In this document: in pieces, positions 7,003-27,619 of the stretch
Layout of the letters: every line of letters begins with the position of its first letter
How positions within the stretch are numbered: the first letter of the stretch is position 1
NCBI GenBank assembly: GCA_963931495.1
Contig: OZ007020.1
Location: forward strand, 720,001-752,000
Direction of reading: 5' to 3'
Length of the DNA: 32,000 nucleotides
Origin: an uncultured Alphaproteobacteria bacterium
GTDB lineage: Bacteria; Pseudomonadota; Alphaproteobacteria; Rs-D84
The notes under the pieces: model-generated
What the model was told of the DNA's origin: nothing
Seen by the model: the letters and a program-made list of their open reading frames with translations, nothing else
Database searches by the model: none
Position numbers and translations under genes: made by a program

Positions 7003-7079
7003 TGGTGCGAGCAAAGGGGCTCGAACCCTCGACCTCAACCTTGGCAAGGTTGCGCTCTAGCCAACTGAGCTACGCTCGC
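7003..7079 (-). tRNA. tRNA-Gly (anticodon GCC), CCA encoded
   Basis: Hand-folded cloverleaf: acceptor GCGAGCG/TGCTCGC, D arm GCTC/GAGC, anticodon arm CAACC-TTGCCAA-GGTTG, T arm GAGGG-TTCGAGC-CCCTT, then A-CCA. 77 nt. Confidence 0.9.
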
Positions 7080-18055: not shown

Positions 18056-18469
18056 TTACCCGATAATATTATTAAAGAACTTTTCCCAATATACCGAATA
18101 TCCGCACCTTTTCTCGCATTCTTCTGCGCATTCGTCACCAGAGTATGAACCGTTCCAAACCCATTTACTTTCAAAAGGACTTAATACTTTACAGTAGCAG
18201 CTGTTGTTCATATCGCCATTCGTATCAACATTCAAACTTTCTGTTACATCAAACATATACCTTGCGCACGCAGAAATCCCGGTTATAACCAACGAATTGC
18301 CCCCAGATGAACACCGACGCGACCACATATTGTCGCCATCATCAGTATTCAGGATGAATAGGCAGTTATTGGGCCGAAGCACACATTTTACAACGGCGTT
18401 GGCCGGCGCGATGTGGACAATGGCGCATAACGCCCCAATCATTCCAAATCGGATTAAATTATTTTTCAT
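18056..18469 (-). CDS. Secreted cysteine-rich protein (137 aa)
   Basis: Signal peptide MKNNLIRFGMIGALCAIVHIAPANA, with a GGGAG Shine-Dalgarno and many Cys residues. First gene after leader copy L1. Confidence 0.65.
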   Translation of the reverse strand: MKNNLIRFGMIGALCAIVHIAPANAVVKCVLRPNNCLFILNTDDGDNMWSRRCSSGGNSLVITGISACARYMFDVTESLNVDTNGDMNNSCYCKVLSPFESKWVWNGSYSGDECAEECEKRCGYSVYWEKFFNNIIG

Positions 18470-18499
18470 TTTTCTTACTCCCTGTGTTTTTGGTTAAAC

Positions 18500-18720
18500 A
18501 AAAAACCACCAATCTGTTGGTGGTCGGGATGTTAGAAAAATCATATACCTTGATGATCCTGTGGCTTTTAAGGACGCATGCCCTTTGTTGCATGAACCAC
18601 AGCATCCCGACCAGACGTCGGGACACGACACAATATGTGTCATAACGTTAACGATGTGTTTCACACACCGAAGGTATAAGGGATTTTCTAAGTCCCGAAC
18701 CCACAAACCATGCGGATTCA
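18500..18720 (-). promoter_or_regulatory. Structured 5' leader RNA copy L1 ending in an intrinsic terminator (candidate riboswitch/attenuator)
   Basis: Paralogous to 23395-23618 and 26990-27205. GAAA-loop hairpin at 18680-18696 and CATCGTTA at 18649-18656. The proximal arm (18617-18622) and the distal arm (18523-18531) both pair with the middle segment (18603-18611). Terminator CCACC/GGTGG plus T6 (A-run 18500-18505 on plus). Confidence 0.6.
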
Positions 18721-18725
18721 TTTTG

Positions 18726-21960: not shown

Positions 21961-22037
21961 GCGCCCATGGCTCAATTGGATAGAGCATCTGACTACGGAT
22001 CAGAAGGTTGAGGGTTCGAATCCTTCTGGGCGCGCCA
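21961..22037 (+). tRNA. tRNA-Arg (anticodon ACG), CCA encoded
   Basis: Hand-folded: acceptor GCGCCCA/TGGGCGC, D arm GCTC/GAGC, anticodon arm TCTGA-CTACGGA-TCAGA, T arm GAGGG-TTCGAAT-CCTTC, then G-CCA. Confidence 0.92.
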
Positions 22038-22503: not shown

Positions 22504-23133
22504 TTATATTTTACAAGTAATAAATCCTAGATTTCTGCCGTCTGTAAAAACTTCGTTGAAACGATCTATTTTCTTGATTTGGTTTAATACTGGGTTAGCC
22601 CCAAGTTCGCGTATCATGCGAAATATCATATTATGTATTTTATGGCATGGCATTTGATGTCTTGAGCATATCAGCAATGACCCGTTATGCGAAAAACGAT
22701 TACGATATTTACGAATTGTATCTATTTCGCGTGAAATTTTTAATAAAGAAACATGGGCTTTCCGATGACTAAATATCTCTTGCAGAGCAGTTGGATATTT
22801 GTCCCAAATAGTTTCGCAATTTTGTGACATAAACAATTTGCTCCAAAAACCGAATGTTAAGCTATCTATTAATTTATTTCTGTCTGTAATATCTTTTTCG
22901 TCATTTAATTTGTCATCTGCACGAACAAAGTCAAAAATCCAATTTTCACCAATATGACGCGATAAAACAGCGTCTATTTTATTGCGTAGAACTATTTCAA
23001 ACTGACTTAAACTTGGATACATGCTTTCGCATAAGCGCACATTAAAAAAATATAACTGATGTGTGTGTGGTTTGTCAGGCGCACCATATTTAGACAAACG
23101 TTGTTCAGACATAAATGGTATTATTGTATCCAT
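22504..23133 (-). CDS. Abi_2 (AbiD/AbiF-like) abortive-infection family protein, HEPN-type
   Basis: 209 aa. YFFNVRLCESMYPSLSQFEIVLRNKI, LTFGFWSKLF and IRKYRNRFSHNGSL (Rx4H HEPN motif) match my recollection of the Abi_2 family. Confidence 0.7.
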   Translation of the reverse strand: MDTIIPFMSEQRLSKYGAPDKPHTHQLYFFNVRLCESMYPSLSQFEIVLRNKIDAVLSRHIGENWIFDFVRADDKLNDEKDITDRNKLIDSLTFGFWSKLFMSQNCETIWDKYPTALQEIFSHRKAHVSLLKISREIDTIRKYRNRFSHNGSLLICSRHQMPCHKIHNMIFRMIRELGANPVLNQIKKIDRFNEVFTDGRNLGFITCKI

Positions 23134-23278: not shown

Positions 23279-23313
23279 GGGCGCGCCAGGAATTTAACCG
23301 CCAGAAACGGCGG
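23279..23313 (+). repeat. attR-like direct repeat
   Basis: Identical 35-nt copy of 22028-22062. Confidence 0.7.
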
Positions 23314-23394
23314 GTTATTTTTTGTTCGTGCACATCATTTCAACATCTTTAATCAAATAAAGTTCTTTTTTTTCAATAAGATTATATACGAACC

Positions 23395-23618
23395 ATCCGG
23401 GATGCTGGTTCGGGGCCGTAGAAAGCCCAGTTTATCCGGTGCAAAAGCATCGTTATACATTTGTGGATATTTCGGTGTCTTTTGCACCGTGTTGTCCCCG
23501 ACCTGGGTCGGGGGGCCGTTCGCAATACAACAGGACCATCGGTCCAAAGGCAACGGGAATCAATGATAAACTGATTTTTCTAACCCCCCGACCACCATGC
23601 GCTGACATGGTGTTTTTT
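23395..23618 (+). promoter_or_regulatory. Structured 5' leader RNA copy L2 ending in an intrinsic terminator (candidate riboswitch/attenuator)
   Basis: 5' hairpin GAACCA/TGGTTC. GAAA-loop hairpin at 23413-23428. CATCGTTA at 23448-23455. 10-bp hairpin 23438-23447/23479-23488. Proximal arm CCCCGAC (23496-23502), middle GTCGGGGGG (23507-23515), distal CCCCCCGAC (23584-23592). Terminator CACCATG/CATGGTG plus T6 (23593-23618). Confidence 0.6.
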
Positions 23619-23643
23619 ACATAAATCTGTACGGGGGGCAAAT

Positions 23644-24423
23644 ATGAAAATAATTACTGTTGCGATTATACTTGCTGTGGTTGCGATTGACGCAAATGCA
23701 GCATGGGGACCCAAATATGGTTCCGAAGACAGCTGTATCGTGGAACGCAAAAATGGGCGAAAATTCTATTTCTGTGGTCAATCACAAAGTGAATGCGCGG
23801 GATACAAAGTACTAAAATGGTCAACACAAAAAGCATTTCAAAATGAAAAAAGTTTTACATCAGAATTTGATTCATCACGAACATTTTACTGCTGTAACCC
23901 AGACGGTGGGGCACGTGGCGTTTGGAAAGAAGGAAAATCGTGGTATGTAACAAACGAAGTTGCAACCAAACAACTGGAAAATGGAACATGCAATTATCAC
24001 CGACGCATCAACATATGTGGGGGTGACGAAAGTACAGACTGTACCGTCCCAGATACATGCACAAATGGAACATTTATGCGCAATGACGAATGTGTTACAA
24101 ACTGTCCCGACGGCAGTGTTTTTGAAAGTGAAACATCAAATGTTTGTATAACATGCGAAACCACCGAATTCCAGGGCATTAATAAAGATCAAGAATGTGT
24201 GCAATGCGATCCGGACACAGAATTTTTTGATTTGGAAACCAAAACCTGTGTCGCCAAAGCAGAACTGACACATATTACCAAAGAAATGATGATGCAATGT
24301 CACAAATGCCCAAACAGCGTTTTATTTTATGACTGTTGCAAAATGTTAAGCATGTCTGAATCAGAACGCACCAACATGGAAAATTACGAACAAATAGTAA
24401 ATGATTGCCAGATACGGCAATAA
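23644..24423 (+). CDS. Secreted cysteine-rich protein with furin/EGF-like CxxC repeats (259 aa)
   Basis: Signal peptide MKIITVAIILAVVAIDANA and a GGGGGG Shine-Dalgarno. Repeated Cys spacing: CTVPDTCTNGTF..ECVTNCPDGS..CITCETTEF..ECVQCDPDTEF..TCV. Confidence 0.7.
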   Translation: MKIITVAIILAVVAIDANAAWGPKYGSEDSCIVERKNGRKFYFCGQSQSECAGYKVLKWSTQKAFQNEKSFTSEFDSSRTFYCCNPDGGARGVWKEGKSWYVTNEVATKQLENGTCNYHRRINICGGDESTDCTVPDTCTNGTFMRNDECVTNCPDGSVFESETSNVCITCETTEFQGINKDQECVQCDPDTEFFDLETKTCVAKAELTHITKEMMMQCHKCPNSVLFYDCCKMLSMSESERTNMENYEQIVNDCQIRQ

Positions 24424-26953: not shown

Positions 26954-26982
26954 TTGTTTTTAATATTCACGCGGTATGTAAT
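26954..26982 (+). promoter_or_regulatory. Putative sigma70 promoter for leader L3
   Basis: TTGTTT (26954-26959) -N17- TGTAAT (26977-26982). Confidence 0.3.
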
Positions 26983-26989
26983 CCAATTG

Positions 26990-27205
26990 TTAATGGGTGT
27001 TCCATTAATGGGGCGTGGAAACCTCTGCACATGCGTCGGGATACATACCTGTGGCGCGCAACATGCGCCCATTTTAGCGTTGTGTTACGACGATAAAAAA
27101 CTCCTGGCCTTATTTGGTCAGGAGGGTTGTAGAATATCAAATACACAACGCAATTCATGTGATTGTTTCCAACCTCCTGACCACCATAAAAACTGGTGGT
27201 TTTTT
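26990..27205 (+). promoter_or_regulatory. Structured 5' leader RNA copy L3 ending in an intrinsic terminator (candidate riboswitch/attenuator)
   Basis: 5' hairpin ATGG/CCAT. GAAA-loop hairpin at 27010-27025. Proximal arm CTCCTGGCC (27101-27109), middle GGTCAGGAGG (27116-27125), distal CCTCCTGACC (27173-27182). Terminator ACCACC/GGTGGT plus a T-run (27180-27205). Confidence 0.55.
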
Positions 27206-27232
27206 CGTTGTAAAAAAAGTGGGAGTTGGACT

Positions 27233-27619
27233 ATGAAACATAGTATATTTTCTGTTATTGGCGTGGTATCAGTAATTATGTTGCCGTACACGGCATTTGC
27301 CGTCAGTGGTAGCGGTGGCAATATTGATTGGGACGGGGTTGACCATTGCATATCTGGGTGCATAAATTGTTCAGTATACGAAACGGCGTCGTGTTGCATT
27401 GTGTGCAACGATAGCAGTGCGGGCGGCGGTGGTGGAAGCGGATATGCATGCACGTCATATGCCCAATGCCCCAGTATATCCGAACGAATCCTGTATACAG
27501 ACATTGGTTCGGCGGCATCAGTTGGTGATGCAGGGATGGCATCATCAAACAATATATGCTTTGACATAAATGGCATTCAATACTATAAAAAATCGGCTGT
27601 GTCATGCCGTACGGCATGA
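27233..27619 (+). CDS. Secreted cysteine-rich protein (128 aa as written; probably the N-terminal part of a frameshifted longer gene)
   Basis: Start re-picked at MKHSIFSVIGVVSVIMLPYTAFA (signal peptide), with a GGGAG Shine-Dalgarno. CISGCINC..CCIVCND CxxC motifs. The in-frame upstream part of track ORF 26954..27619 covers the leader and terminator and is rejected. Confidence 0.6.
   Translation: MKHSIFSVIGVVSVIMLPYTAFAVSGSGGNIDWDGVDHCISGCINCSVYETASCCIVCNDSSAGGGGGSGYACTSYAQCPSISERILYTDIGSAASVGDAGMASSNNICFDINGIQYYKKSAVSCRTA

Follow-up and report, generated by a model that had tools for sequence, protein, structure and literature searches.

Why should an uncultured alphaproteobacterium place the same structured RNA, each copy ending in a transcription terminator, in front of several genes for secreted cysteine-rich proteins? 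The question is raised by a 32,000-nt window (positions 720,001 to 752,000, forward strand, of contig OZ007020.1, assembly GCA_963931495.1, lineage Rs-D84), which is part of a ~0.96-Mb circular metagenome contig. The window contains three copies of a ~220-nt leader, L1, L2 and L3 (Table 1), which belong to a large and so far uncatalogued family in small-genome gut Alphaproteobacteria. We propose that the leader is an RNA–RNA switch in which a strand complementary to the ribosome-binding site (RBS) of the following gene is coupled to terminator read-through, and that it is an enlarged, lineage-specific derivative of the sRNA-Xcc1 type. This proposal is drawn from sequence comparison, and we give it somewhat better than even odds.

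A terminated leader in front of three secreted-protein genes

A 20-nt pattern taken from the leader 3' ends has three exact matches in the window, where chance alone would give 0.01. The three leaders are all far more stable than shuffled sequence on folding (z = -8.0, -4.6 and -5.8). The original prediction of a three-copy element at these places, made from the bare sequence, is thereby borne out. A terminator scan identifies a hairpin and T-run at the end of each leader (18525-18504 minus, 23593-23612 plus and 27179-27201 plus). The terminator is followed by the Shine-Dalgarno (SD) sequence and ATG of an open reading frame (ORF) that encodes a signal-peptide-like N-terminus and 10-21 Cys; none of the three ORFs matched Pfam. 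The predicted arrangement of a built-in terminator directly before a secreted Cys-rich gene is thus confirmed. Because only 25-33 nt separate the T-run from the ATG, there is no space for a promoter, and ORF expression would depend on read-through, as had been proposed.

What drives transcription of the leaders? A sigma-70-like promoter lies directly upstream of L1 (TTGATA-N18-GATATT at 18755-18726 minus). L2 needs its own transcription start because the terminator of the upstream gene is located at 23298-23313.

Long-range helices and covariation

Structure statistics were obtained from a 56-sequence alignment using 500 shuffles and a control in which the partner strand was slid. The named structure is paired in 78.5% of cells, compared with 68.0% after shuffling and 40-52% with a slid partner, and the covariation score is 0.266 versus 0.133 for shuffled alignments; no shuffle did as well on either measure (0/500). 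The covariation reported for the three copies thus extends to the broader set. Judged by these comparisons, the leader is a structured non-coding RNA under strong selection for RNA structure. A wide-window control that swapped the longest helix was too permissive to inform.

Two long-range helices dominate the fold. P1b is paired in 100% of cases and joins UAGAAA to a distant UUUCUA. The family contains six complementary versions of this helix (UAGAAA/UUUCUA, UGGAAA/UUUCCA, UGAUGA/UCAUCA, UGAGAA/UUCUCA, UAACGA/UCGUUA and UAAGAAAA/UUUUCUUA). P2 lies just inside P1b, spans 6-10 bp in 56/56 copies and differs in sequence in almost every one. Both-sided changes are found at 9/9 pairs of P2 and 6/6 pairs of the P5 hairpin, and subtype-specific counts agree. 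The original prediction was therefore right about covariation and wrong about several local hairpins, whose strands pair over a long range. Its "conserved loop" CTTAGAAAA and its TTTYYAAC element, regarded as separate local parts, pair with each other as P1b. The second of its two covarying downstream hairpins is really the 3' strand of P2, whose 5' strand lies just past the hairpin that carries this loop. The single-stranded CATCGTTA is conserved only in a subset of relatives.

The remaining strands are G-rich (G1, G2) or C-rich (C1, C2, C3), and G2 and C3 define two subtypes, A (G2 GGUCGGGAAG, C3 CUUCCCGACC; L1) and B (G2 GGUCAGGAGG, C3 CCUCCUGACC; L3), together with a variant, A', with G6/C6 tracts (G2 GGUCGGGGGG, C3 CCCCCCGACC; L2). 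Pairing of G1 with C3 (P1a) was rejected as the favoured state of G1, given that P1a has no double-sided changes and the local G1:C1 stem has them (GAGG:CCUC, GAGA:UCUC). A pseudoknot that consists of the G1:C1 stem with its loop engaged in P1b is therefore as likely as a fully nested fold. An Xcc1-like local "hairpin 2" was also discarded; it is invariant and thus uninformative in type B and broken in the lineage of relative L007. The GACCACC and AUA(C)AA motifs are invariant or highly conserved, and pairing alone does not explain them.

Two other origins of the conservation were rejected. Leader-peptide attenuation was considered for L3, whose leader is open in frame with the gene, and the substitution pattern is that of paired RNA. 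A mobile element or attC-like repeat is at odds with compensatory evolution and with a position and orientation that are always fixed between promoter and ORF.

A proposed anti-RBS strand with three alternative partners

What do the alternative pairings of the leader have in common? They converge on one strand just upstream of the terminator, composed of L' and C3. This anti-RBS strand complements a 5' copy of the RBS (G1 plus the P1b 5' strand), the middle G-rich strand G2 and the real RBS (SD plus spacer). The mutually exclusive proximal, middle and distal pairings noted in the original prediction are real complementarities in the three copies and in their relatives. The 5' look-alike resembles the downstream RBS (GGGACUUAGAAAA versus AGGGAUUAGAAAAUG), and in type B the complement of L'+C3 reads UCAGGAGGUUGGAAAC and the RBS UCAGGAGAUUGAAAUAUG.

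Energy calculations distinguish the cognate RBS from others. The duplex of the type B anti-RBS with its own RBS has a mean of -13.5 kcal/mol, compared with -6.5 for shuffled RBSs and -8.1 for 251 SD-bearing RBSs of other genes at the same loci; just 1.8% of the duplexes with these other-gene RBSs equal it. The minimum free energy (MFE) fold of the 3' part pairs the anti-RBS with the RBS in 41/45 copies, and that of the full read-through RNA does so in 13/45, including L1. C3 is paired with the SD in the read-through MFE folds of both L1 and L2, and in the L1 fold the terminator sits inside a three-way junction, alongside the G1:C1 hairpin and P2. The two counts and the L1 fold therefore suggest that the RBS-paired and RBS-free states are near-isoenergetic.

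Natural variation affects the same strands. A diverged copy (L014:6378) has concerted changes in its 5' look-alike, L' and RBS spacer. Between two strains (the window and L004:1024-1330), the 265-nt L2 leader differs in C3 and the SD only, through A to C at 23582-23583 with one extra C (C6 to C8) and G to A at 23633. In the proposed switch, these two elements pair with each other. The adjoining 780-nt ORF has seven substitutions. Homopolymer slippage or phase variation at the C3 poly-C tract is possible.

G2 provides another choice. G2:C3 is pairable in 94.9-98.1% of cases, with compensatory changes among them, yet MFE folds pair G2 with C2 instead. Compensatory changes favour C2:G2 (L045/L065) and G2:C3 (L061 and window L1) alike. 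In addition, an A-run complementary to the terminator U-run follows it (27200-27218 and 18486-18506 in the window, and most relatives), for example TTTTTTGTTTAAACAAAAAA, and GTTTAAC recurs in both subtypes. The U-run pairs with the A-run in 28/45 spacers (mean MFE -2.3 versus -0.7 for shuffled spacers). As modelled, such a hairpin would place the SD beside C3 in the read-through RNA.

Relationship to sRNA-Xcc1

Is the leader related to a known RNA? No Rfam family reaches its cut-off on the leaders, no riboswitch family matched, and the three window copies have no significant match to a known family. However, the sRNA-Xcc1 model (RF02221; gathering cut-off 53 bits) gives full-length sub-threshold matches of 31.8-37.9 bits on the 3' half of five copies, including L2, L3 (Table 1) and relatives L016 (37.9 bits) and L015 (36.6 bits). 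As positive controls, 11/12 Xcc1 loci from IMG/VR score 58.7-85 bits. In the reverse direction, a covariance model (R1) built from 39 leader 3' domains alone finds 10 Xcc1 elements (8 of them Rfam-confirmed), full-length and at their annotated positions, with E values of 7e-8 to 0.012 in 194 kb. These reciprocal matches therefore relate the two families. By this measure, the leader 3' domain is a diverged relative of sRNA-Xcc1 and, by Rfam's own criterion, not a member. The claim of an undescribed class thus stands at the level of Rfam thresholds and fails for the 3' domain. An nhmmer search with the full-leader profile missed the viral Xcc1 elements that the covariance model alone found, and BLAST of the Rfam Xcc1 consensus yielded no match in phages or plasmids.

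sRNA-Xcc1 is known from Xanthomonas integron cassettes, prophages and genomic islands. It is listed as a trans-acting small RNA (sRNA) (PMC2996969), has 40,293 reads in enterohaemorrhagic Escherichia coli (EHEC) (PMC5331693) and occurs upstream of symE and ORF6N genes (bioRxiv 10.1101/2025.06.18.660453; 10.1101/2020.03.17.996009). The EHEC EDL933 coordinates of PMC5331693 correspond to a hok/sok locus in the assembly examined and were not used as Xcc1.

The two families share a potential G-rich/C-rich outer stem (G2:C3) followed by ACC(A/C), whose ACC is invariant in the leaders, a U-rich L' ahead of C3, a 5' hairpin loop complementary to L', and a hairpin past ACC that precedes the SD and ATG. 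They also share an AAUACAA-type loop in the first hairpin, which is present as AAUACAACA in L2, UAUACAACA in type A and AAUAUCAAAUA in type B. The leader family differs from Xcc1 in several respects. The 3' strand of the long-range P2 takes the place of hairpin 2, and a 5' hairpin (H0), a variable P3 and the proximal arm C2, which captures G2, are added. The weak hairpin of Xcc1 is replaced by a strong intrinsic terminator. The leader SD is predicted to pair with C3 instead of with the hairpin-2 sequence, X'. Finally, the leaders are chromosomal, multi-copy and located before secreted Cys-rich genes in Rs-D84-like genomes, in contrast to Xcc1, which precedes mobile-element toxin or antirepressor genes.

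The true Xcc1 loci display a comparable logic. In 18 distinct loci, the variable 9 nt before C3 (L') have a perfectly complementary 9-mer in the loop of a 5' hairpin, and the loop sequence recurs after ACCC. X' within hairpin 2 complements two segments, one located upstream and the other adjoining or overlapping the SD of the next gene, which at L157 encodes an antirepressor-like protein. These complementarities suggest that the Rfam Xcc1 element is just the 3' core of a cis leader that is longer and organised like seqA-CI-seqC of phage P4. sRNA-Xcc1 is widespread in integrons, prophages and genomic islands and has been annotated just as a "trans-acting sRNA" without an accepted mechanism; it now gains a testable architecture.

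Two side observations concern true Xcc1 loci. Eleven leaders (L195, L191, L192, L196, L198, L199, L202 and L205-L208) carry a conserved GCGG-loop-CCGC-(A/G)CCCGA(C/U/A)AG-...-GCGG-U7 module ~40-110 nt upstream of the core, which resembles a small terminator/antiterminator pair and whose CCCGAC resembles the C2 and C3 arms. One viral contig bears two tandem bona fide sRNA-Xcc1 elements ~215 nt apart (L206:2085-2172 and 2299-2382); five tandem copies have been reported in a Xylella genomic island (PMC12189769).

Distribution and controlled genes

A scan of species-representative genomes with the 3'-end pattern returned 59 loci in ~38 assemblies, nearly all gut alphaproteobacterial metagenome-assembled genomes (MAGs) named Ca. 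Enterousia or "uncultured Rickettsiales". All but a few of these loci are full homologues. A profile search of the same loci added 11 further diverged copies and left the window with just its three. Single MAGs contain at least 4-7 copies. Genomes of the Rs-D84 order, which includes Enterousia, are only ~0.75-1.0 Mb in size (PMC12306168). In these uncultured bacteria, an RNA family with several copies per genome (at least seven in one MAG) appears to gate secreted Cys-rich proteins.

In ~50 of the 59 loci, the leader is followed by a signal-peptide ORF with 9-28 Cys that starts 25-33 nt past the T-run and lacks its own promoter. The downstream ORFs form a few distant paralogue clusters, within which the leader subtypes are mixed. 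A search for a metabolic or transport theme among the leader-controlled genes found none; secreted Cys-rich proteins dominate, and a few glycosyltransferase-like ORFs are also present.

Individual loci stand out. The secreted ORF behind the type A leader of L047 (match start ~7818 minus) matches eukaryote-type Colipase N and C domains (E 1e-7), and that of L021 (leader at 151) has a signal peptide and Cys-rich region followed by two ribosomal L7/L12 C-terminal domains (E 6.5e-27). In L009, L044 and L053, the leader lies ~125-130 nt before non-secreted ORFs that resemble glycosyltransferases by sequence reading, and L024 may be similar; L046 and L060 also have non-secreted proteins downstream. 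The atypical L057:2369-2508 minus retains the 3' half of the leader alone, still followed by a secreted ORF. The orthologous copies L051 and L055 have a second terminator instead of an ORF behind the leader. Typical copies also occur in Bacteroidota-named assemblies, namely L028, which is nearly identical to L007, and L038 (CAVGNU01, labelled Bacteroides fragilis), and L015 (CAZJGX01, labelled Muribaculaceae); these probably reflect binning contamination or mislabelling.

Proposed mechanism and alternative explanations

How could such a leader control its gene? Transcription would begin at a sigma-70-like promoter a few bases upstream of the leader. The RNA would fold into a 5' hairpin, a multi-branch core closed by P1b and P2, the variable P3, the C2:G2 hairpin (P4) and P5 with its AUA(C)AA loop. 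The intrinsic terminator would end most transcripts as a ~220-nt short RNA, and the gene would be carried by read-through RNA only. In that RNA, L'+C3 (for example, UUUUCUAAC-UUCCCGACC) would act as an anti-RBS with three alternative partners. Pairing with the 5' look-alike would leave the real RBS free. Pairing with G2 would restore the Xcc1 outer stem and invade the terminator base as a candidate antiterminator. Pairing with the real SD and spacer would form a three-way junction around the terminator hairpin and block translation. Expression would thus be set by both terminator read-through and an RNA–RNA choice at the RBS. A small-molecule ligand is not needed for the proposed switch. IsrK, P1/P7 C4 and P4 CI suggest, by analogy, that the switch could be triggered in trans by the short isoform, or else by a processed one.

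Several observations weigh against this proposal. The nested fold of the leader alone, with P1, P2, C2:G2 and the terminator, is 9-14 kcal/mol better than one with forced G2:C3, and G2:C3 overlaps the base of the terminator stem by only 4 nt in L1, 1 nt in L2 and 3-4 nt in L3. G2:C3 antitermination is therefore possible but weak, especially in L2. An RBS swapped in from the other subtype still yields at least six anti-RBS:RBS pairs in 76% of cases; the complementarity is therefore partly generic SD/anti-SD chemistry. In type A, C3 alone and the 16S anti-SD match the SD to a similar degree. A leader and its RBS may also have been inherited together, in which case their co-variation would look stronger than it is. 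The highly conserved bases of the AUA(C)AA loop and the junction may be a binding site for a ligand or protein. With respect to the proposed kinships, RF02221 gives no match on L1 at E<=10, and the Rfam C4 (RF01695) and isrK (RF01394) models do not match the three leaders even at that level.

Would a metabolite or second-messenger riboswitch account for the data better? P1b, P2, P3 and P5 would then form an aptamer whose ligand chooses between C2:G2 with the terminator (off) and G2:C3 (on). Like riboswitches that terminate transcription, the leader has a large covarying multi-branch fold with conserved unpaired bases right against an intrinsic terminator. Its mutually exclusive proximal, middle and distal complementarity is conserved in all subtypes, with individual compensatory cases (L061, L045/L065 and window L1). 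Many copies per genome before surface or secreted genes are also reminiscent of c-di-GMP riboswitches. However, the leader family has no match to a known class or metabolic gene context, nothing points to the small-molecule ligand envisaged by the original prediction, and homologous Xcc1 elements precede phage antirepressor-type genes and, per the literature, toxin genes. Moreover, the conserved strands mimic or complement the RBS, and RNA–RNA complementarity that includes the RBS accounts for most conserved segments; the same energetic deficit of G2:C3 (9-14 kcal/mol) and the barely overlapped L2 terminator also speak against a ligand-driven antiterminator. We thus regard a riboswitch as unlikely. 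An attenuator or antiterminator that depends on a protein or the ribosome is no more probable in our estimate. An RNA-binding protein would read the conserved loop and junction or the C- and G-rich repeats and control read-through, translation or both across the entire secreted-protein regulon. The repeated GGA-containing G-rich segments (G1, G2 and SD), the repeated C-rich segments and the invariance of GACCACC and AUA(C)AA beyond pairing would suit such a protein, and the strongly terminating default fold would be helped to switch by an outside factor. On the other hand, no candidate protein was identified, and an architecture shared with unrelated hosts and phages at the Xcc1 loci speaks against a lineage-specific protein.

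The leader might instead be a stand-alone trans-acting sRNA, with the ~220-nt RNA or an RNase P-processed core acting on other mRNAs and the ORF expressed by leaky read-through without cis control. The description of sRNA-Xcc1 as an abundant trans-acting RNA (PMC2996969; PMC5331693), the strong promoter and terminator, and the two copies without an ORF behind them (L051 and L055) are consistent with this idea. We consider it the least probable alternative, given that ~50/59 copies keep the fixed 25-33 nt from the T-run to the SD and ATG of an ORF without its own promoter, and that the RBS complements the L'+C3 of its own leader, with intervening hairpins that give a tight three-way junction. 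The cis-acting anti-RBS switch could also be part of something larger, although we think this improbable. In that case, gut Alphaproteobacteria with reduced genomes would have domesticated a phage-immunity-type circuit (Xcc1, P4 CI and C4) and expanded it into a protein-free network across the chromosome, in which short, possibly RNase P-processed RNAs act in trans on the read-through mRNAs of paralogues via shared anti-RBS and look-alike strands, with the copy-unique P2 giving specificity. If true, the network would let the members of a variable set of secreted Cys-rich surface proteins be expressed either in concert or to the exclusion of one another.

Comparison with other antisense leader systems

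The proposed switch resembles the immunity RNAs of phages, namely P4 CI, which follows a seqA-seqB-seqC logic, and P1/P7 C4, which follows an a'/b' logic (PMC4825925; PMC5320573). These are small structured leader RNAs whose strands complement one upstream and one downstream (RBS) site on the same transcript. In the leader family, the upstream site is supported by P1b and P2 covariation, and the downstream site by the cognate duplex energies (-13.5 versus -8.1 kcal/mol) and the 41/45 3'-part folds. A further likeness is an acceptor-like stem that starts with GG(U/C) and has ACCA-like bases on its 3' side, a feature of RNase P substrates. At the sequence level, the first bases of G2 are GGUC, and ACCA, ACCU or ACCC comes after the stem; RNase P might cleave at the acceptor-like G2:C3-ACCA. 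The systems differ in that the phage RNAs confer immunity via Rho-dependent or premature termination, whereas the leader family has an intrinsic terminator between the antisense strand and the RBS and precedes cellular genes.

IsrK of Salmonella Gifsy-1 is a promoter-proximal sRNA with its own terminator, and its read-through mRNA folds into translationally inactive or active forms (PMC4825925). In the leader family, the predicted read-through isoform can likewise fold with the RBS sequestered in silico. IsrK differs in using an upstream small ORF and translational coupling, and it has no sequence or Rfam similarity to the leaders.

Features of the window

The mapped features of the three leaders are listed in Table 1.

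Table 1. Coordinates of leader elements and adjoining ORFs in the window
Feature	Position	Strand	Sequence	Remarks
Leader L1 (type A)	18500..18722	-		inferred transcription start to end of terminator T-run
L1 5' RBS look-alike	18684..18696	-	G1 GGGA + P1b 5' strand CUUAGAAAA	pairs with 18522-18540; P1b covaries family-wide
L1 P2 5' strand	18671..18678	-	UAUACCUU	pairs with 18544-18551 (AAGGUAUA)
L1 P4 hairpin	18603..18623	-	proximal arm C2 UCCCGAC, middle strand G2 GGUCGGGAUG	
L1 sRNA-Xcc1-like 3' domain	18518..18613	-		G2, P5, P2 3' strand, L', C3, ACCA; R1 72.7 bits; Rfam Xcc1 model, no match
L1 anti-RBS strand	18522..18540	-	L' UUUUUCUAA + C3 CAUCCCGACC	complements 5' look-alike, G2 and RBS 18467-18484; pairs with RBS in read-through MFE
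L1 intrinsic terminator	18500..18525	-	GACCACCAA/UUGGUGGUU + U6	terminator scan, fold
L1 ribosome-binding region	18467..18484	-	CAGGGAGUAAGAAAAAUG	of ORF 18056-18469
ORF behind L1	18056..18469	-		137 aa, signal-peptide-like N-terminus, 10 Cys, no Pfam match
Leader L2 (type A', G6/C6 tracts)	23390..23618	+		
L2 5' module	23412..23436	+	G1 + P1b 5' strand GGGGCCGUAGAAA, C1 GCCC, P2 5' strand CAGUUUAUC	
L2 P4 hairpin	23496..23515	+	C2 CCCCGACC, G2 GGUCGGGGGG	
L2 sRNA-Xcc1-like 3' domain	23505..23601	+		RF02221 35.6 bits, full model length, 23506-23601; R1 66.8 bits, 23505-23597
L2 P2 3' strand + anti-RBS	23565..23593	+	GAUAAACUG + UUUUUCUAACCCCCCGACC	
L2 intrinsic terminator	23593..23618	+		terminator scan
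L2 RBS	23631..23646	+	ACGGGGGGCAAAUAUG	duplex with anti-RBS -17.0 kcal/mol; pairs with C3 in read-through MFE
ORF behind L2	23644..24423	+		259 aa, signal-peptide-like N-terminus, 21 Cys, no Pfam match
Leader L3 (type B)	26987..27205	+		
L3 5' module	27010..27033	+	G1 + P1b 5' strand GGGGCGUGGAAAC, C1 CCUC, P2 5' strand CACAUG	
L3 P4 hairpin	27101..27125	+	C2 CUCCUGGCC, G2 GGUCAGGAGG	
L3 sRNA-Xcc1-like 3' domain	27115..27190	+		RF02221 31.8 bits at 27116-27190; R1 60.6 bits
L3 P2 3' strand + anti-RBS	27156..27182	+	CAUGUG + GUUUCCAACCUCCUGACC	
L3 intrinsic terminator	27179..27205	+		terminator scan
L3 RBS	27219..27235	+	GUGGGAGUUGGACUAUG	
ORF behind L3	27233..27619	+		128 aa, signal-peptide-like N-terminus, 10 Cys

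The L3 leader has no in-frame stop, and the ORF listing (26954-27619) and metagenome gene callers (27008-27619 in L001) extend the gene to 203-221 aa. Judged by its SD, ATG and signal peptide, the ORF truly starts at 27233, and the longer call takes in the non-coding leader. No Rfam entry covers the family at threshold, and gene-calling software mislabels the leader as coding sequence.

An Abi-like gene (22504-23133 minus) lies between a tRNA gene and L2, and another strain (L004:182-774) has a Gp49/HTH_3 (HigB/HigA-like) pair instead. Judged by this exchange of gene content, 22504-23133 is a putative small, variable defence or toxin–antitoxin islet that adjoins L2. A sub-threshold Rfam match to Plastid-ycf2 at 21961-22035 minus (36 bits; also at L016:81-155) is a false positive on the antisense of a tRNA gene. 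The genuine tRNA genes of the window are located at 7006-7079 minus and 21961-22034 plus.

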